Shown: positions 2,699 through 49,710, numbered from the stretch's first letter. The stretch: 64,000 nucleotides of DNA from Candidatus Hydrogenedentota bacterium (GCA_036769985.1 DAIPKA010000004.1:161096-225095), one strand, 5' to 3'. Program-made: numbers and translations. Notes: generated by a model not told the origin, from the sequence alone.

Positions 2699-5098
2699 AT
2701 GGGCAAGTGCCTGGTAGTGGTCGAGTCGCCGGCGAAAGCGCGGACGATCAGCAAGTTGCTTGGTTCAAACTACGTGGTGCGGGCAAGCAACGGACACGTG
2801 CGCGATCTTCCCAAGAACTCGTTGGGCGTGGACATTGAGAATGGTTTCGCGCCGAAGTACCTTCCCCTCCCGGACTCGGCGGCGGCGATCAAGCACATCC
2901 GCGAGGCCGCGAAGAAGGTGGATCGGATCCTGCTGGCCTCCGACCCGGACCGTGAAGGGGAGGCCATCGGTTGGCACGTGGCCCAACTGCTCAAGCGCTC
3001 GGGCAAACCCATCCAGCGCATCGAGTTCAATGCCATCACCAAACGCAACGTAACCGAAGCCGTCAAGCACCCGCGGGACATCGATCAGGATCTGGTCGAT
3101 GCCCAGCAGGCCCGCCGAATCCTCGATCGCTTGGTTGGATACAAGATCAGCCCTCTCCTCCAATGGCGTGTTCGTCGAGGCCTCAGCGCGGGACGTGTTC
3201 AGTCCGTAGCCGTTCGGATGGTCTGCGACCGCGAGGCCGAGATCCGCAGCTTCGTTCCCGAGGAGTACTGGACCATCGACGCCGTGCTGAAGACCGTGCA
3301 CGAGGAGATGATGACCGCGCGCCTCGCGATGATCCGCGGCGAGAAAGCCCGCGTCGTGAACGAGGCCGGAGCGCGCGCCATTGTGGCCGACCTCGAGAAC
3401 GCCGAGTATCGCGTGGCGAGTGTCGAGCGCAAGGAGGTCCGCCGGCATCCCTATGCGCCGTTCATCACCAGCACCCTTCAGCAAGAGGCGGCCCGAAAAC
3501 TCCGGTTCAGCCCGCGCCAGACCATGCGGATCGCTCAGGTGCTGTACGAAGGCGTGACCGTCGGCGACGAGGGCCAGGTCGGCATTATCACCTATATGCG
3601 CACGGACTCGACCCGGATCGATCCGGAAGCGATCGCCGAGGTCCGCGACTATATCGGCCGGAACTTCGAGCCCACCATGCTGCCCGAAAGCCCCAACGTG
3701 TACCGAAGCAAGCGGGGCGCCCAGGATGCGCACGAGGCCATTCGGCCGACATCCGCATTCCGAACACCCGACTCCCTCGCGGCGTACCTCGACGCCGATC
3801 AGCTCAAGCTGTATACCCTAATCTGGCAGCGGTTTGTGGCATCCCAGATGGCCTCCGCGGTGCTGGACCAGACGACCGTGGACGTCGCGGCGAAGGAGTA
3901 CGTGTTCCGCGCAACGGGCTCCGTGGTGAAGTTCGCCGGATTCACGAAGCTGTATGAAGAAAGCGCGGATGACTCAACCAAGAACGGTCGCGACGCGGAA
4001 GCGGATCGATCCATACCGGCGGTTGCGGAAGGCGAACGACTGTCGGTCCAGGAACTGAGGCCGGAACAGCACTTCACGAAGCCGCCGCCCCGTTACTCGG
4101 AGGCAAGCCTCATCCGAGCCCTCGAAGAGAATGGCATCGGCCGGCCCAGCACCTACGCGCCGACGATCAACACCATCCAGGATCGCGGGTACGTGACGCG
4201 CGAGAAGGCCTATCTCCGGCCGACGGAACTCGGCGAACAGGTCAACGCACTTCTACTCGAGAGCTTCCCCGACATCCTCGACATCAACTTCACCGCCAGC
4301 CTCGAAGAGGATCTTGACCACGTCGAGGAAGGACGGCGGTCATGGTCCGAGTTGCTGGCGGCCTTCTACTCCGGCTTCAGCCGGAATCTCCGAACGGCTC
4401 AGCAGCGGATGGTGGGCGAACAGGCGGAAGGTGATGCGCCGTGTCCGGAATGTGGGAAGCCGATGGAGCTACGGACGGGCCGGTTCGGCCCTTTCTTGGC
4501 GTGTACGGACTACCCAACGTGCCGCGGCTCAAAACGGATCGCCAAGCCCAAGACGGTCGAGGAAACGGGCGAAACCTGCGACCAGTGCGGCGCACCCATG
4601 GTGATCCGGGAGGGCCGATTCGGCCGGTTCATGGCGTGTTCGAAATACCCGGAGTGCAAGAATACGTACAACATCGACGAAAGCGGCAACAAGATCCCGA
4701 AACAGCCCAAGGAACCGCCCAAGAAGACCCAACAGAAGTGTCCTCAGTGCGACGGATTCCTGCTCATCCGCAAGAGCCGCGCCGGCGAGGAATTCTACGG
4801 ATGCGAGCACTATCCCAAGTGCCGCTTCACGAAACCCATGGAGCTGGGCCTGAAATGCCTGCGGCCCGGATGCGACGGCAATCTCGTCACGCGCCGAGGT
4901 AAGGGGCGCCGATTCATCGGGTGCGACAAGTATCCGACGTGCGACTACACAGTCTTCGGGCAGTTGGACAAGGAAACTCCGTGTCCAACGTGCGGCAACG
5001 CGTGGACCGTTATCGCCAAAGAGCGGAATAAGTCGCGCCGGCGCAAGTGTCCTGTGCCGGGATGCCCCTTCGAGGAAGCCCTGCCCGAGGAAGAATAG
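2699..5098 (+). CDS. topA: DNA topoisomerase I with five C-terminal C4 zinc-ribbon modules.
   Basis: The N-terminal Toprim motif MGKCLVVVESPAKARTISKLLG...VRASNGHVRDLP is present. The C-terminus carries five CxxC...CxxC zinc ribbons (CPECG...CTDYPTC, CDQCG...CSKYPEC, CPQCD...CEHYPKC, CLRPGC...CDKYPTC, CPTCG...CPVPGC). An AGGAG RBS precedes the start. Confidence 0.95.
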   Translation: MGKCLVVVESPAKARTISKLLGSNYVVRASNGHVRDLPKNSLGVDIENGFAPKYLPLPDSAAAIKHIREAAKKVDRILLASDPDREGEAIGWHVAQLLKRSGKPIQRIEFNAITKRNVTEAVKHPRDIDQDLVDAQQARRILDRLVGYKISPLLQWRVRRGLSAGRVQSVAVRMVCDREAEIRSFVPEEYWTIDAVLKTVHEEMMTARLAMIRGEKARVVNEAGARAIVADLENAEYRVASVERKEVRRHPYAPFITSTLQQEAARKLRFSPRQTMRIAQVLYEGVTVGDEGQVGIITYMRTDSTRIDPEAIAEVRDYIGRNFEPTMLPESPNVYRSKRGAQDAHEAIRPTSAFRTPDSLAAYLDADQLKLYTLIWQRFVASQMASAVLDQTTVDVAAKEYVFRATGSVVKFAGFTKLYEESADDSTKNGRDAEADRSIPAVAEGERLSVQELRPEQHFTKPPPRYSEASLIRALEENGIGRPSTYAPTINTIQDRGYVTREKAYLRPTELGEQVNALLLESFPDILDINFTASLEEDLDHVEEGRRSWSELLAAFYSGFSRNLRTAQQRMVGEQAEGDAPCPECGKPMELRTGRFGPFLACTDYPTCRGSKRIAKPKTVEETGETCDQCGAPMVIREGRFGRFMACSKYPECKNTYNIDESGNKIPKQPKEPPKKTQQKCPQCDGFLLIRKSRAGEEFYGCEHYPKCRFTKPMELGLKCLRPGCDGNLVTRRGKGRRFIGCDKYPTCDYTVFGQLDKETPCPTCGNAWTVIAKERNKSRRRKCPVPGCPFEEALPEEE

Positions 5099-6112: not shown

Positions 6113-7669
6113 TCACGCGCTCGGCCCCCAGATACTCGTAGGCCCCTCATTGCGCTGCGGCGTGCCGGGCGTGCTGCGGCCGTTCTCGACGTACTGCCCG
6201 AGGAGTCTCGTGAGGCGCTCGACGATCTCCGGATGCTGATCGCAGACATTCAAGGTTTCGGCGACATCCTTCTCAAGGTCGTAGAGCTGGATCGGCGGCA
6301 AACCCATCGTCCGCGCCTCCTGGGGTTTCGGAGGGCTCCAGCCGCCGCTGCCCGAACACAGCTCAAGCTTCCACCGCCCTTGCCGAATCGAGAGCGAACC
6401 GTTGATGGAAGCCTGGACTGTCGCCTCGCGGAGGGGGGCCGCAAGAACCTCGCCGCGCAGGACCGGCAGCAGGCTGTAACTGTCCTCGCCGGCGTTGTCC
6501 GGCAACGTAGCGCCGACGATGGCCGCCGCCGTCCCGAGGAGATCGGTGAGGCAGACGGTCTCAGCGCACATAGCGCCGGCCGGCACCACGTTCGGCCAGC
6601 GAACGAGATACGGAATGCGATGGCCGCCCTCAAAGATATCGGCCTTGTAACCTCGGAACACATAACTTGGATCGTGACCGAGCTTCTCGAGGAGCGGGAA
6701 GTTGGCCTTGGGCGAACAGCCGTTGTCGCTCGTGAAAACGACCAGCGTGTTCTCGGCGAGGCCGTGCGAGTCGAGCGCGTCGAGCACGCGCCCAACCACG
6801 GCATCGACTTCCATCACGAAATCGGCATACGGATTAAGGCCGCTCGCGTCCTTGAACGGCTCGTTCGGCACAATCGGCGTGTGCGGCGCCGTGAGCGGGA
6901 AATAGAGAAAGAACGGCCCACCAGCATCGGCTCGGTCCTGGATGTATTCGACGGCCTTGGCCGTGAGCGTGGGCAGGACATCGTGACAGTCGAAGCCCGG
7001 CAGCGCCTCGCCGGGCCGCCAGAACGCGTAGTCCCCACCGCCCTCGGCGTGGGCCGTCGGTAGGGCCACGCACGCGTCGTCCTCGATATAGACGTAAGGC
7101 GGCATATCGAGCGACGCCGGAATGCAGAAGTTGTAACCGAATCCGAGGTCCCGAGGGCCGTGCTGCACCGGTTTCGCGTAGTCGACGCTGCCATCTTCCG
7201 CCTTGCCCTGGCCTTCCCTAAGCGCCCAGTCCCAGCCGAGATGCCATTTGCCCACGCAGGCCGTGTGGTAACCGTGTTGCTTGAGCAACGAGGCCACCGT
7301 CATCCGCTCCGGCGAAATGAGGTGGCGCGAATAGCCGTCGAGCACGCCCTGTTTGAGCGTCGAGCGCCAGGGATAGCGACCGGTGAGAATGCCATAGCGC
7401 GTGGGCGTGCACACCGCCGACGGCGAATGGGCGTCCGTGAACACCATGCCTTCACGCCCGATGCGATCGATGTTGGGCGTCCGGATCTTCGAGTCGCGAT
7501 TCAGACACGACACGTCGCCGTAGCCCAAGTCATCGGCCAGGATGTAGACGATATTCGGCATGTTCGAAGCCTTCGCCGCAGCCCGGGCGCCCGCGCTGCG
7601 CGCCAGCACCGCCGTGCCACTCGCGGCTGCCGCCCGCCGCAGAAACGCCCGCCGGCTCAGTGATTGCAT
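6113..7669 (-). CDS. Sulfatase (arylsulfatase family) with a twin-arginine signal peptide.
   Basis: TAT motif SRRAFLRRAAAASG. Sulfatase signature CTPTRYGILTGRY (C-x-P-x-R) and the N-terminal metal-binding block IVYILADDLGYGD. A GAGGAG RBS precedes the ATG at 7669; the track ORF extends to 7705. Confidence 0.9.
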   Translation of the reverse strand: MQSLSRRAFLRRAAAASGTAVLARSAGARAAAKASNMPNIVYILADDLGYGDVSCLNRDSKIRTPNIDRIGREGMVFTDAHSPSAVCTPTRYGILTGRYPWRSTLKQGVLDGYSRHLISPERMTVASLLKQHGYHTACVGKWHLGWDWALREGQGKAEDGSVDYAKPVQHGPRDLGFGYNFCIPASLDMPPYVYIEDDACVALPTAHAEGGGDYAFWRPGEALPGFDCHDVLPTLTAKAVEYIQDRADAGGPFFLYFPLTAPHTPIVPNEPFKDASGLNPYADFVMEVDAVVGRVLDALDSHGLAENTLVVFTSDNGCSPKANFPLLEKLGHDPSYVFRGYKADIFEGGHRIPYLVRWPNVVPAGAMCAETVCLTDLLGTAAAIVGATLPDNAGEDSYSLLPVLRGEVLAAPLREATVQASINGSLSIRQGRWKLELCSGSGGWSPPKPQEARTMGLPPIQLYDLEKDVAETLNVCDQHPEIVERLTRLLGQYVENGRSTPGTPQRNEGPTSIWGPSA

Positions 7670-7739
7670 GAGCTCCTCTCCTCTTCTTTCGAGTGCCGTG
7701 ACCACTCCCGCTTATCACCTAGCAGCGAGAACCCCGCTT

Positions 7740-8002
7740 CTGTCATCTCGAGCGAAGCGAGAGATCTCCCTCGACATTCCTTACGCGCGTCCGCAGGAAA
7801 CAGGCACTATCCGTGCCTGTCCGCCGCGGACGGCCCTCCTGACCAGAACACTCTCCTCTGTCATCTCGAGCGGAGCGAGAGATCTCCTTCCGAGATTGCG
7901 TCACCCGAAGACACAGACCCTCCTGCCATCTCGACGCAAGAGGTCCTCTTGGCCAAAGCGAGGGATCCGATTCTGTCATCTCGAGCGAAGCGAGAGATCT
8001 CC
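7740..8002 (+). repeat. Dispersed 29-30 nt direct repeat (c)TGTCATCTCGAGCGAAGCGAGAGATCTCC, three copies plus one degenerate copy.
   Basis: Exact or near-exact copies at 7741-7769, 7859-7887 (one A-to-G change) and 7974-8002, and a degenerate copy at 7923-7948. The spacers (about 88 nt) are unrelated to each other. The repeat contains an internal hairpin ATCTCG-agcgaag-CGAGAgAT and the palindrome GAGATCTC. Confidence 0.9.
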
Positions 8003-8080
8003 TCCGGCATCCTTCACGTGTCTTCGGAAGGGTCAAGACGCCGCTCATTGCCGTGCTGAAGGACGGCCCCTTCCTGTCTC

Positions 8081-8410
8081 TCAACACCGTTCCTCCACTC
8101 CGATCTTAACACCTTGAAACCATCCGTCACTCAGGTCCTTCCATTCCGGATTACAGGCAACCACAAGGCCGTTCTTCTTCTCGCGACGCCATTTCTTGAT
8201 CTGTTTCTCCCTCGCAATCGCGTCGCGGACATCGCCGAATTCCTCATAGTACACCAGCTTATTCACGTTGTATTTCGCGGTGAAGCCACGCACCATTTTC
8301 GCCTTGTGCTCGTAGATCCGGCGATCAATGTCGTTGGTTACGCCCACGTACATCACCCTGTCATTCTTGTTCGTCAGGAGGTAGACATAGTAGCGATGCT
8401 CTCTGCGCAT
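8081..8410 (-). CDS. Small GIY-YIG nuclease family protein (COG2827-like).
   Basis: YYVYLLTNKNDRVMYVGVTNDIDRRIYEHK is the classical GIY-YIG core. AGGAGG RBS; 109 aa. Confidence 0.9.
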   Translation of the reverse strand: MRREHRYYVYLLTNKNDRVMYVGVTNDIDRRIYEHKAKMVRGFTAKYNVNKLVYYEEFGDVRDAIAREKQIKKWRREKKNGLVVACNPEWKDLSDGWFQGVKIGVEERC

Positions 8411-8517
8411 AGGATCCTCCTAGCCGCTCCTCTGCCGGCAGGCCTGTATCGTCGTCCTGAACAAACGTGAGGAGTCGCCGCTCCTTTTACTCCAAACGAA
8501 TGCGAGAAATCGCGGAA

Positions 8518-8546
8518 GGAGATCTCTCGCTTCGCTCGAGATGACA
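8518..8546 (-). repeat. Inverted exact copy of the same 29-nt repeat.
   Basis: GGAGATCTCTCGCTTCGCTCGAGATGACA is the exact reverse complement of the 7974-8002 copy. Together the two bracket the GIY-YIG gene. Confidence 0.9.
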
Positions 8547-8573
8547 GGTGGGGACACCGGCGATTCGGAACGG

Positions 8574-9791
8574 CTATTCCCCGACGTCTCCCAGCGCCGC
8601 GTCGACACGGCCGATGGTCTCGTCGATGTCGCTCTCTTTGTGCGAGTAGTTGACGTAGGGCAGGTTGTAGAACGACACCCCGTGGCCGTAGCAGGCATCG
8701 AAGAAGCTTGCGGCGAAACCGTCGTCGAACTCGAAGATCGCACATACGTCGAGGCCGCGCAGCCGGACGGGCGCCGCGTGCTTCTCAAACACCGCCGTGA
8801 GTCCTTGACGCAGCCGCCCGGCCATGGCCCACAGATGCGCAATCACGTCTTTCTCGCGGTAGAACGAGATCGCGGCCTTGGCGGCGGCCAGGGATAGCGT
8901 CTCGCCGCCGAAGGTGGACGAGATGCCGACGGCCCTGGCACTGTCGATGAGGTCCGCGCGGCCGACATAGGCCGAGATCGGCATGCCGTTGGCCAGGCCT
9001 TTCCCGAACACCGCCATGTCGGGCATGAAGCCGAAATACTCCTGCGCGCCGCCGACGGCCAGCCGGAATCCGGTGACGATCTCGTCCATGATCAGCAGCG
9101 CGCCATACTCCTGGGTGAGTTTCCGCAACGCCGGCAAGAATTCGGCGCCTTTCTCCATGTCGGCGTAATTCGAGGCGACCACCGCCGCGGCGATGTCGTT
9201 GCCGTCTTTCTCGAAGGCGGCCTTCCACGGCTCGATGTCGCCCCAGGGCAACGACGCATGCAACGCGGATATCGCCGCAGGAACGCCTTTCTCGGGCCGG
9301 CTCGCTGCGATGCCGGCCGGCCGGAATCCGCCGGCGCTCAACGTGTTGATCCAGCCGTTGTAGCCGCACTGAAGCACCTTGTTTCGTCCGGTCGCGTTGC
9401 GGGCAATCTTGATGCACGCGGCGATGGCCTCGCCACCGGTCTTGAGAAATCGCACGCGCTCGGCACAAGGCAGGGCCTCGACCAAGAGCTTGGCGACCTC
9501 CCCCTCGAGCGGATGCGGATGACCGAAAATGATGCCGTTCTCAAGCTGCGCCGCGATCGCCGCATTGATCTCCGGCACGGCGTATCCCAGCGTGATCGGC
9601 CCGAGCGAATTGCGGTAATCGATGTACTCGTTGCCGTCGGCGTCCCACACGCGACAACCCTTCCCTCGGACAATCTGGGCGGGCTCGGCACCTTCCAGCG
9701 TCGGCGCCTTCGAGGAGGTGGAACTGCCCTGCGCCAAGGACCTCGTGCTTTCTCGGTACAGGGCCCAGGATTTCGAAACATCGTGGCTCAT
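8574..9791 (-). CDS. Class III (PLP-dependent) aminotransferase, glutamate-1-semialdehyde-aminomutase-like.
   Basis: Class-III aminotransferase fold regions and the PLP lysine region MDEIVTGFRLA. An AAGGGAGGA RBS precedes MSHDV at 9791; the track ORF extends to 9932. Confidence 0.85.
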   Translation of the reverse strand: MSHDVSKSWALYRESTRSLAQGSSTSSKAPTLEGAEPAQIVRGKGCRVWDADGNEYIDYRNSLGPITLGYAVPEINAAIAAQLENGIIFGHPHPLEGEVAKLLVEALPCAERVRFLKTGGEAIAACIKIARNATGRNKVLQCGYNGWINTLSAGGFRPAGIAASRPEKGVPAAISALHASLPWGDIEPWKAAFEKDGNDIAAAVVASNYADMEKGAEFLPALRKLTQEYGALLIMDEIVTGFRLAVGGAQEYFGFMPDMAVFGKGLANGMPISAYVGRADLIDSARAVGISSTFGGETLSLAAAKAAISFYREKDVIAHLWAMAGRLRQGLTAVFEKHAAPVRLRGLDVCAIFEFDDGFAASFFDACYGHGVSFYNLPYVNYSHKESDIDETIGRVDAALGDVGE

Positions 9792-48159: not shown

Positions 48160-49710
48160 ATGCGCTCTCAACGGAAATGCTCGCTGCACATCGTTGCCAT
48201 CGTCGTTCTGGCATCGGCGTTCAGCGCCGCGGCGGAACTCACCGTTCCAAGTATCATCGGCGACCACATGGTGTTGCAGCAAGGCAAGCGGCTGCCCATC
48301 TGGGGCAAGGCCGACCCCGGTCAGGCGGTCGTCGTGGCCATCGCCGGAAAGGAGGCCAAAGCCGTGGCCGACGATCAAGGCCGCTGGCAGGTCAAGTTGC
48401 CCAAACTCCCATTCGGCGATCCGCTCGAGATGACCATCTCGGCCGGCGACACCTCGTTGACCTTCTCGGACATTCTGGTCGGCGAAGTCTGGATCGGTTC
48501 CGGCCAGTCCAACATGCAGTGGACGGTCCAAGACAGCAACAACGCGGCAGAGGAGATCGCCGCTGCGGCCCATCCCAACCTTCGCCTCTTCTATGTCGAG
48601 CGTACCGTCGCGACGGAACCGCAAGAGAACTGTAACGGCGCGTGGACGGCCTGCACGCCGGAAACGATCCCCGGTTTCTCGGCCGCGCTCTATTACTTCG
48701 GCCGCGATCTGCACAAGGAACTCGGCGTACCCGTCGGGTTGATCCACAGTTCGTGGGGCGGAACACCGGTCGAATCATGGACCAGTCACGCCGCACTCAA
48801 CGCCGAACCCATGGCCAAACCGATTCTCGACCGGTGGCAGGAAACCCTCAGGAACTACCCCGCCGCCGCCGAGGCGTACCAGAAACAAATGGAGGAATGG
48901 AAAGCGGCCGCGGAAAAAGCCAAGGCCGAAGGCAAGGAGGCCCCCGGTCAGCCGGGCGCGCCCACAGGCCCCGGACACCCATGGACCCCATCCGGCCTGT
49001 ACAACGCCATGATCGCACCGCTGGTACCGTATGCCGTTCAAGGCGCGATTTGGTACCAGGGCGAATCCAACGCCGGCCGCGCCTTCCAGTACCGGACGAT
49101 CTTCCCACTCATGATTGAAGATTGGCGCAACGCCTGGAACGACTCGATCTCGTTCTACTTCGTCCAGCTCGCCAATTTCTATGACCGTGACGCCGAGCCC
49201 GTCGAGTCGGAATGGGCCGAACTCCGCGAGGCCCAAACCATGACCCTCGACCTGCCCAAGACCGGCATGGCCGTCATTATCGACATCGGCGAAGCGAAGA
49301 ATATCCATCCCAAGAATAAGCAGGACGTGGGCAAGCGCCTCGCCCTCAACGCGCTCGCCAAGGATTACCACAAGAGCATCCCGTTCTCCGGCCCCATGTA
49401 CGATCGCATGCGCAAGAAGAGCGGCAATATCATCCTGAGTTTCGACCATACGGACGGCGGCTTGAAGGCCATGGGCGGCGAACCGCTCAAAGGCTTCGCT
49501 ATCGCCGGCGCGGACCGAAAATTCGTGTGGGCCAACGCCAAGATCGACGGCAACAAAGTCGTCGTCTCCTCGGACCAGGTTGCGGATCCGATGGCCGTGC
49601 GTTACGCCTGGGCCAACAATCCGGAGTGCAACCTCTACAACGGGGTCGGCCTGCCGGCATCCCCTTTCCGAACGGATGATTGGACGGGCCTCACCATCAA
49701 CGCACGCTAG
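48160..49710 (+). CDS. Sialate-O-acetylesterase-like (SGNH/DUF303) carbohydrate esterase, secreted.
   Basis: Signal peptide. GEVWIGSGQSNMQW is the catalytic Ser block of the SIAE family. An AAGGAGGA RBS. Confidence 0.8.
   Translation: MRSQRKCSLHIVAIVVLASAFSAAAELTVPSIIGDHMVLQQGKRLPIWGKADPGQAVVVAIAGKEAKAVADDQGRWQVKLPKLPFGDPLEMTISAGDTSLTFSDILVGEVWIGSGQSNMQWTVQDSNNAAEEIAAAAHPNLRLFYVERTVATEPQENCNGAWTACTPETIPGFSAALYYFGRDLHKELGVPVGLIHSSWGGTPVESWTSHAALNAEPMAKPILDRWQETLRNYPAAAEAYQKQMEEWKAAAEKAKAEGKEAPGQPGAPTGPGHPWTPSGLYNAMIAPLVPYAVQGAIWYQGESNAGRAFQYRTIFPLMIEDWRNAWNDSISFYFVQLANFYDRDAEPVESEWAELREAQTMTLDLPKTGMAVIIDIGEAKNIHPKNKQDVGKRLALNALAKDYHKSIPFSGPMYDRMRKKSGNIILSFDHTDGGLKAMGGEPLKGFAIAGADRKFVWANAKIDGNKVVVSSDQVADPMAVRYAWANNPECNLYNGVGLPASPFRTDDWTGLTINAR

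Follow-up and report, generated by a model that had tools for sequence, protein, structure and literature searches.

The closest described counterpart of the locus reported here is the Ssn/SRM system (Chenal et al., 2025, Nat Commun 16:2388, PMC11893778), in which a small GIY-YIG nuclease acts on a hairpin repeat, the Ssn-related motif (SRM). SsnA of N. meningitidis, a 94-aa cd10448 GIY-YIG protein (GIY-YIG_unchar_3), binds an oriented hairpin, the NTS, solely as single-stranded DNA (ssDNA) and cuts it a few nucleotides upstream; double-stranded DNA (dsDNA), RNA and the reverse strand are inert, and RNA of the motif is not bound. The substitutions Y6A, Y17A and E64A each abolish cutting, the three nucleotides before the palindrome control cleavage, and the C after it controls binding. 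SRMs were found near 71% of Ssn homologues and on both sides of 42%, specificities vary between the homologues, of which four have published biochemistry, and in Neisseria SsnA lowers transformation by motif-bearing DNA. The NTS-ssnA-NTS layout was called insertion sequence (IS)-like, with an explicit analogy to repetitive extragenic palindromic (REP) sequences and their RAYT transposases (Chenal et al., 2025). Apart from this paper we found no relevant literature linking GIY-YIG proteins to such repeats, and no follow-up paper to it. Here we describe a 64,000-nt stretch of DNA from Candidatus Hydrogenedentota bacterium (GCA_036769985.1, DAIPKA010000004.1:161096-225095; hereafter the window), in which the gene for a 109-aa GIY-YIG nuclease lies between inverted copies of a hairpin repeat. 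From sequence comparison, this locus is very probably an Ssn/SRM unit, consisting of an Ssn-family nuclease, its inverted cognate hairpins and three further copies of the repeat downstream.

The enclosed protein carries a GIY-YIG domain at residues 7-79 as its sole Pfam match, with no accessory domain, and its AlphaFold2 model (pLDDT 83) consists of one compact domain plus a C-terminal helix. The best fold matches of the model are UPF0213 (1zg2), Slx1 and the GIY-YIG domain of UvrC, and the nearest solved relatives are the UPF0213 proteins BH0048 and EF2693 (PDB 1zg2, 1ywl). Compared with the N. gonorrhoeae SsnA orthologue (L221:1489-1773; L numbers are our locus identifiers), the protein is 43.3% identical with E 2.6e-27 over residues 5-91 of 94 (93%), and in this comparison it passes the published blastp criterion for SsnA homology, E < 1e-10 with query cover of at least 75% (Chenal et al., 2025). 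Residues Y10, Y21 and E68 align with Y6, Y17 and E64 of SsnA and are invariant across 26 homologues. These alignments show the window protein to be an SsnA homologue in which the putative catalytic residues are kept.

With up to 3 mismatches allowed, the repeat, CTGTCATCTCGAGCGAAGCGAGAGATCTCC, matches the window at four places only, against 0.00 expected from shuffled sequences, and a looser pattern adds just one chance-level match, at 48411 (Table 1). An earlier annotation of the locus made without database searches (the sequence-only reading) had described a 29-nt repeat in direct copies and as a reverse complement; all of these copies are real, but the repeat is 30 nt long, and the spacers that were taken to be unrelated are so only in part, because copies remain similar for about 16 nt outward from either end of the 30-mer (identity 82% and 65% in copies of 62 nt). 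The one degenerate copy it had pointed out, at about 7923-7968, is present as well: it has TGCC for TGTC, a stem ATCTC/GGGAT with one G·T, and a loop that itself contains a small stem, AAGAG/CTCTT. We infer that this element is a long-loop repeat site, and long-loop and nested hairpin variants are also present in related loci. As had been claimed, inverted repeats enclose the 109-aa GIY-YIG open reading frame (ORF) and nothing else: in a repeat search of the window, 7973-8008 and 8512-8547 form an inverted repeat of 36 nt, 94% complementary, and the bracketed unit at 7973-8547 is 575 bp with a single ORF. The copy at 8518-8547, which reads C-TGTC-ATCTC-GA-GC-GAA-GC-GA-GAGAT-CTCC, ends 111 nt upstream of the ATG, and the copy at 7973-8002 lies 78 nt past the nuclease stop codon with its TGTCAT strand antisense to the gene; the unit is therefore a loose version, with unrelated DNA of these two lengths between hairpins and ORF.

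The association of gene and repeat extends far beyond the window. In a gene-centred comparison of 73 related loci, which by record title span more than a dozen phyla and include homologues 60-79% identical in Patescibacteria, Chloroflexota, Actinomycetota, Nitrospirota, Planctomycetota and Bacillota among others, a TGTCAT-oriented hairpin lies within 200 nt upstream at 61 of the 73 loci, a reverse-oriented one within 200 nt downstream at 62, and both are found at 52. The window copies at 8518-8547 (-) and 7973-8002 (+) match the majority 5' and 3' orientations. In compact relatives the 5' hairpin ends 3 nt before the ATG; at 21 of 62 loci it ends within 12 nt of the start codon and its GGGAGA 3' arm serves for ribosome binding. 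At 23 of 64 loci the start of the 3' hairpin falls within 12 nt of codon 97, and its sequence covers the final codons and provides the TGA stop. Annotated C-termini of the homologues read ...GWFEISPFGRDDK or ...DPSLRSR*, the translated reverse complement of the repeat; across the family, gene and repeat are therefore physically contiguous. The pairing of gene and repeat, in fixed orientation, is thus conserved across more than a dozen phyla. A hairpin is found on each side at 84-85% of the 73 loci; the idea of the sequence-only reading of a repeat family targeted by the nuclease gains support from this cross-phylum pairing and from the match to the published Ssn/SRM system.

More distant homologues, 43-64% identical, in N. 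gonorrhoeae, S. meliloti, Spirosoma and Planktothrix are likewise flanked by hairpins, which are lineage-specific. The N. gonorrhoeae homologue is flanked by CGTCATTCCCGCGCAGGCGGGAATCT, the neisserial dRS3 repeat (NTS), and it was through this repeat that the link to the Ssn/SRM system was reached. In S. meliloti (L220, pSymB region) a homologue 48% identical is flanked by CGTCATCCTCGGGCTTGACCCGAGGATCC, a hairpin that may represent one of the known families of rhizobial intergenic repeats; immediately upstream is the 3' end of a second copy of the gene, so that the units stand in tandem between gltA and lpxB. At two of the related loci (L007:1440-1590 and L012:5890-5990) a truncated 5' gene fragment, hairpin plus codons 1-31, precedes an intact copy and is followed by a shared unrelated stretch, which is evidence of local rearrangement or nested insertion. 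The cross-phylum protein identity of 65-79% was considered as proof of transfer and set aside as weak, because the neighbouring aminotransferase also reaches 60-70% across phyla. Database entries of the family are often falsely extended (P0003, P0023, P0037, P0064 and others), with EISPFGRDDK(x)nGRDDN tails that correspond to the 3' hairpin and half-site arrays (described below), and in many entries N-terminal false extensions of 30-45 aa translate the 5' repeats.

The hairpins of these loci share the consensus y-TGTC-AT-nnn-GA-nn-GNA-nn-GA-nnn-AT-CT, and the clade has the motif yTGTC-ATyyC-GA-nn-GNA-nn-GA-GrrAT-CT, which is compact and very strongly conserved. In the window hairpin, a 5-bp stem is followed by tandem G·A and then by a 2-bp inner stem that closes on a GNA triloop. 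Because folding of the single copy did not beat shuffled sequences, we relied on covariation, with sites picked by a pattern that leaves the stem free. Across 150 distinct sites, 98.0% of stem cells pair, against 85.9 ± 0.5 in shuffles, and 111 cells are changed on both sides, against 22.4 (none of 500 shuffles was as high); slid controls give 21-61% pairing. Complementarity reaches 98-99.5% in the three variable outer pairs, where T-A is exchanged for C-G, and 94-95% in the two inner pairs, which occur as C-G, G-C and A-T. Covariation of this kind shows a hairpin selected for pairing. Thus the hairpin that the sequence-only reading saw within the repeat gets no backing from folding energy, but strong backing from covariation across related loci.

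The predicted folding strand and the bases next to the palindrome also agree with what is known of Ssn. The tandem GA/AG and the GNA triloop are present on the TGTCAT strand only, and wobble pairs are T·G in 16 cases but C·A in 6; because these features and the wobble bias sit there, the TGTCAT strand is weakly favoured as the one that would fold. When hairpins were chosen by palindrome alone, at loci not selected for the motif, the bases before the palindrome were conserved at T.94, G.98, T.99 and C.97 and those after it at C.97 and T.82, with nothing conserved outside these TGTC and CT flanks. Conservation is 97-99% for the GTC that precedes the palindrome and the C that follows it, both published as critical, and the window locus passes a flank test that asks for hairpins within 500 bp on both sides with GTC 5' and C 3' of the palindrome (Chenal et al., 2025). 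Unpaired flanks that are invariant across phyla imply a conserved protein reader. Hairpins within hairpins were also seen, up- and downstream of the gene (L017:~1720-1790, L034, L058, L085), with a second site of another stem type, TGTCCCGAGCGGAGCGAGGGA, lodged within the loop of one that reads TGTCATT..GAGAAATCT; such nesting suggests that loops tolerate or attract insertions, and loops can be extended without loss of Ssn cleavage (Chenal et al., 2025).

Several observations weigh against the Ssn/SRM assignment. The SRM string HGTCWYN(0-2)YYVSBRHN(0-5)WNVSBRGN(0-2)RNCYNB, published by Chenal et al. (2025), finds no match in the window and none among 203 sites of the window's hairpin class, though it does match the Neisseria NTS; it is an operational search pattern derived from 29 genomes and no definition of function. 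Since the string does not match, the membership of the repeat among SRMs rests on shared architecture, and the window hairpin is, by its sequence, a class outside the published pattern. The homology comparison used the N. gonorrhoeae orthologue and not the assayed N. meningitidis protein, CAX49033.1, and identity to the characterised enzymes is just about 43%. There is no sign of SRM expansion, the 4-5 copies in the window all being at this locus. Finally, the folding energy of the window hairpin is no better than that of shuffles, with z-scores near 0 under both RNA and DNA parameters. The mini-hairpin d(GCGAAGC) is a classic, very stable DNA structure for which nearest-neighbour models give no credit.

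If the window protein acts as the published biochemistry of four homologues would suggest, then it would bind the folded hairpin whenever the TGTCAT strand becomes single-stranded, in replication, repair, transformation or conjugation, and would then hydrolyse that strand a few nucleotides 5' of the hairpin. Cuts would be expected just outside 8547 on the minus strand and just before 7973, 7858 and 7740 on the plus strand, and the protein would be inactive on dsDNA, RNA and the complementary strand. The exact cut site is a guess, a further point against the assignment as worked out here, because identity is only about 43% and specificities differ between homologues. The role of the unit would most likely be the processing or restriction of motif-bearing ssDNA, or that of a domesticated or decaying IS-like element.

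Set beside known systems, the locus is of the kind described in 2025. Like the published Ssn systems, it has a single-domain GIY-YIG protein of about 94-110 aa with matching catalytic residues, a gene between inverted, oriented hairpins with GTC 5' and C 3' of the palindrome, and many gene-less copies elsewhere; the predicted active strand also agrees, in that SsnA cuts the forward strand only and here the GA/GNA features and the wobbles mark the TGTCAT strand. Unlike the NTS, which has an 8-bp G+C-rich stem, the window class has a 5-bp stem, invariant tandem GA/AG, a 2-bp inner stem and a GNA triloop, and unlike the published systems it sits in an uncultured Hydrogenedentes host, shows no repeat expansion in 64 kb and belongs to a clade known here from sequence. 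The REP/REPIN-RAYT systems are similar in that a nuclease gene lies between inverted short hairpins, that gene-less singlets and doublets are dispersed and amplified within genomes, and that ssDNA hairpins with a conserved 5' tetranucleotide are recognised, as is predicted here. However, RAYTs are HUH/Y1, IS200-like transposases, whereas the enclosed gene here encodes a hydrolytic GIY-YIG enzyme for which no covalent intermediate is expected, and whereas REPs are species-specific, the window hairpin sequence is conserved across phyla.

Elements of the IS200/IS605 group are alike in their sub-terminal ssDNA hairpins, cleavage a short distance 5', very small size and lack of need for classic terminal inverted repeats that bind protein as dsDNA. 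They differ in having both hairpins on the same strand, where those of the window are on opposite strands, and in transposase chemistry, and in contrast to them we found no evidence of transposition at the window unit. UPF0213 and prokaryotic Slx1-like proteins have the same minimal fold and include the nearest solved structures, and their classification comes with no function and no repeats attached; eukaryotic Slx1 acts on branched dsDNA and depends on Slx4 and on a RING/PHD domain. The GIY-YIG homing endonucleases (I-TevI, Seg) share the catalytic domain, and their selfish-element logic is a possible origin. Classification as a homing endonuclease was rejected: the protein has no DNA-binding domain (NUMOD, IENR1), lies in neither an intron nor a phage, and scores 21.5 bits against TIGR01453, the NCBIfam model for group I intron endonucleases, below the cut-off of 56. 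PADLOC and PHROGs gave weak, generic homing-endonuclease matches only, and a search for phage copies gave no matches.

Table 1. Features of the window locus (positions in the window) and of related loci (L numbers)
Feature	Location	Strand	Remarks
Repeat copy CTGTCATCTCGAGCGAAGCGAGAGATCTCC	7740-7769	+	exact; SRM-type; orientation as 7973 copy
Repeat copy	7858-7887	+	one mismatch, loop A to G (GGA for GAA); orientation as 7973 copy
Degenerate copy, putative long-loop site	~7923-7968	+	CTGCCATCTCGA, 25-nt loop, GAGGGATCC; read from sequence
3' proximal SRM-type hairpin repeat	7973-8002	+	exact inverted partner of 8518-8547
ssn-like gene, 109-aa single-domain GIY-YIG nuclease	8081-8410	-	Pfam PF01541, E 6.4e-19
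Shine-Dalgarno AGGAGG of nuclease gene	8416-8421	-	5 nt before ATG; read from sequence
5' SRM-type hairpin repeat	8518-8547	-	exact 30-mer; inverted-repeat arm; TGTCAT on gene sense strand
Mod/Res slot, empty	L225:4480-4510		TAATG overlap
Mod/Res slot with Fic gene	L223:1266-2641, L226:3361-4501		
Mod/Res slot with SRM-ssn-SRM and 80-aa ORF	L006:5850-6365, L224:3485-4501		
Mod/Res slot with SRM-ssn-SRM, further loci	L008, L009, L012, L021, L046, L055, L206-L215		
ssn unit between type III Mod and Res	L006, L008, L009, L011, L012, L020, L021, L046, L055; also L206-L215		
ssn unit after EcoEI-type HsdR	L017, L019, L035, L036, L038, L058		
ssn unit in HsdM-HsdS-...-HsdR	L030, L042, L048		
ssn unit between MmeI-type enzyme and DISARM DrmA	L219		Planktothrix agardhii plasmid p1, NZ_LR882964, 18.5-19.4 kb
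Half-site arrays	L007:1267-1450, L018:2846-2940		
Half-site arrays	L018:5524, L044:5629, L051:6364-7400	-	
Half-site arrays	L038:6304-6420, L052, L055:5821, L080, L219:3685-3760 and 4320-4400		

Within the window, the unit lies between a class-III aminotransferase gene upstream and a sulfatase gene downstream, all three genes being on the minus strand, and the copy at 7740 is 35 nt past the start codon of the sulfatase, whose ORF (GTG start) ends at 7705. The G+C content of the nuclease ORF is 0.52 (8100-8400), against 0.64-0.67 in the flanking genes, and GC skew is strongly negative across 7500-8400. Because the G+C content of the ORF is about 12 points below that of its neighbours, the unit looks, on composition, horizontally acquired; it also looks low-copy and loosened. 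The same locus was found in five independent metagenome contigs, its repeat layout being identical. The 573-nt sequence L005 (ENA ERZ27257428 k141_1181991) is exactly the repeat-bounded unit, from a TGTCAT start to an ATGACA end; it most likely reflects a break of the assembly graph at the inverted repeat in a low-coverage sample, and it may be an excised or inverted form of the unit.

When metagenomes were searched with a 27-mer of the window repeat instead of the gene, at least 120 stretches were recovered, from organisms of 35-70% G+C, and the nuclease gene lay within 300 nt at 1 of 80 loci among the matches listed. Most copies are gene-less inverted doublets (TGTCAT-hairpin, 15-90 nt, hairpin'-ATGACA), and many solo sites lie directly after the stop codons of other genes. 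The gaps within convergent pairs fall into three classes, of about 19 nt, of 28-60 nt, and a sharp class of 297-301 nt that encloses the GIY-YIG ORF, which is the sole gene type enclosed by convergent hairpin pairs among 200 loci. Doublets in the same genome share spacers and were therefore amplified as units. The idea that gene-less doublets arose by internal deletion, with the first codons (ATGCC) retained, was rejected, since only 6 of 156 spacers fit. Thus the repeats are REP-like dispersed elements that are not private to the gene, yet are specifically tied to the nuclease family; the sequence-only reading had named generic REP-like repeats with no association to GIY-YIG genes as one finding that would undo it, and the repeats do prove to be dispersed but retain this specific link.

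Half-site arrays were observed in addition, 26 in all, in which the 5' half of the hairpin (TGTCATyyCGAnn) and 6-12 nt of C/T-rich filler are repeated 2-8 times with a period of 16-28 nt (mode 19, and 21-24); every array closes 3' with one full hairpin. Such arrays may have been left behind when the loop was nicked and then repaired, or may stem from slippage at a stable hairpin.

These dispersed copies bear on a different account, in which the unit at 7973-8547 is an active miniature mobile element, its GIY-YIG protein serving as the transposase, or the homing nuclease, by which it moves, and the solo and doublet repeats are non-autonomous derivatives resembling REPINs or miniature inverted-repeat transposable elements (MITEs). 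This account, which is compatible with the Ssn assignment, seems to us unlikely, although an IS-like origin was hypothesised by the Ssn authors themselves (Chenal et al., 2025) and a survey in 2006 noted a recent GIY-YIG insertion in an HsdR gene, together with links to methyltransferases (Dunin-Horkawicz et al., PMC1564403). It would explain the inverted-repeat architecture conserved over the 73 loci, the two sizes of convergent pair (gene-less doublets of about 19 nt and gene-bearing units of about 300 nt), the doublets that share spacers within one genome and were amplified as units, the many homologues on very short contigs, the dip in G+C at the ORF (0.52), and presence/absence polymorphism at the Mod/Res junction of a type III restriction-modification (R-M) family. 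Against it, and against the self-propagating or homing unit proposed in the sequence-only reading, there is no target-site duplication at the unit boundaries, 7973 and 8547, the 64-kb window holds one such locus only, and the search for phage copies gave no matches. The gene is indeed absent beside the nearest aminotransferase orthologues (74-78% identical), but because synteny is lost there too, these are not clean empty sites. Moreover, the window unit has 111 + 78 nt of unrelated DNA inside its repeats, unlike compact units, the boundaries of the R-M inserts fall about 100 and 35 nt outside the hairpins, and GIY-YIG enzymes are DNA hydrolases that are not known to rejoin strands.

The polymorphism at the Mod/Res junction concerns a family in which Res is 85-91% identical across phyla and the junction is a variable slot, either empty, or occupied by a Fic gene, or occupied by SRM-ssn-SRM (Table 1). 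The sequence TAATGGC recurs at both ends of the inserts and may represent a duplicated target, or just the context, ribosome site plus start codon, needed by Res. An 80-aa ORF between Mod and the ssn unit (L008:~570-700, L009, L206:1974-2216) reads MAKFKVLSDPGFNSPEFEGIKNQAGLNSFILTAKQWIEKTNAIGIKA..RYGGTYAH; it has no Pfam match on record, and we take it to resemble the beginning of a KilA-N/Bro-type DNA-binding domain that the hairpin truncates.

A further possibility is that the hairpins are RNA-level cis-regulators, the 5' copy masking the ribosome-binding site and the 3' copy acting as a stabiliser or terminator, with the other copies being REP-like mRNA stabilisers that have no protein partner. 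The placement of the 5' hairpin within 12 nt of the ATG, with the GGGAGA arm as Shine-Dalgarno sequence (21/62 loci), the 3' hairpin that overlaps the last codons and gives the TGA stop (23/64), and the many solo sites just after the stops of other genes would all suit such a role. However, the window gene has its own AGGAGG with the hairpin 111 nt off, no copy is followed by a T-tract and none was reported as terminator-like, and SsnA did not bind RNA of its motif (Chenal et al., 2025). Because the 5' and 3' copies lie on opposite strands, only the 5' copy would offer the conserved GA/GNA strand in mRNA, and unpaired flanks invariant across phyla are hard to square with regulation that lacks a protein partner. 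No Rfam family matched the whole window at the gathering threshold, 7600-8650 at E <= 10, or ten related loci. We regard an RNA-level explanation as very unlikely, and favour hairpins read as ssDNA by an Ssn-type nuclease. That generic intergenic palindromes simply happen to surround an unrelated stand-alone GIY-YIG gene would fit the exact 27-mer lying mostly away from the gene in metagenomes (1/80 within 300 nt, among the matches listed), but is contradicted by the locus counts, with a hairpin on each side in fixed orientation at 84-85% of gene-centred loci, by the sharp spacing class of about 300 nt, by the same layout with different hairpins in Neisseria, Sinorhizobium, Spirosoma and Planktothrix, and by the direct binding and cleavage published for homologues (Chenal et al., 2025), and coincidence is hardly credible.

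The genomic surroundings of the related units may also bear on function. At about 18 of 80 gene-centred loci the ssn-hairpin unit lies inside an R-M operon, in the arrangements listed in Table 1, and one unit adjoins a DISARM gene on a Planktothrix plasmid; an R-M or defence context goes unmentioned by Chenal et al. (2025). Taken jointly, these observations could mean that the units are mobile cassettes that seed REPIN-like doublets and favour R-M and DISARM operons, and that half-site arrays are scars of Ssn cleavage and repair, a combination that we offer as speculative and regard as unlikely. Neither the reading as mobile cassettes in R-M operons nor that of half-sites as scars appears in Chenal et al. 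(2025). If the units were such cassettes, dsDNA restriction in these operons would be complemented by the ssDNA nuclease as an arm that acts on single strands, directed against transforming, conjugative or ssDNA-phage DNA.

The Ssn/SRM assignment has consequences for annotation, enzymology and biology. This locus and thousands like it should be annotated as an Ssn-type ssDNA nuclease with cognate hairpins; the present label is 'GIY-YIG nuclease family protein', and beside it stand spurious ORFs translated from the hairpins (tails like ...EISPFGRDDK). The published SRM string misses this hairpin class, and the published SRM census is therefore probably an underestimate. With four Ssn enzymes characterised, every further enzyme-motif pair is a potential site-specific ssDNA cutter. 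Finally, the placement of units in R-M and DISARM operons, together with a slot that is empty or holds Fic or ssn, bears on whether Ssn is a component of defence or a selfish passenger.

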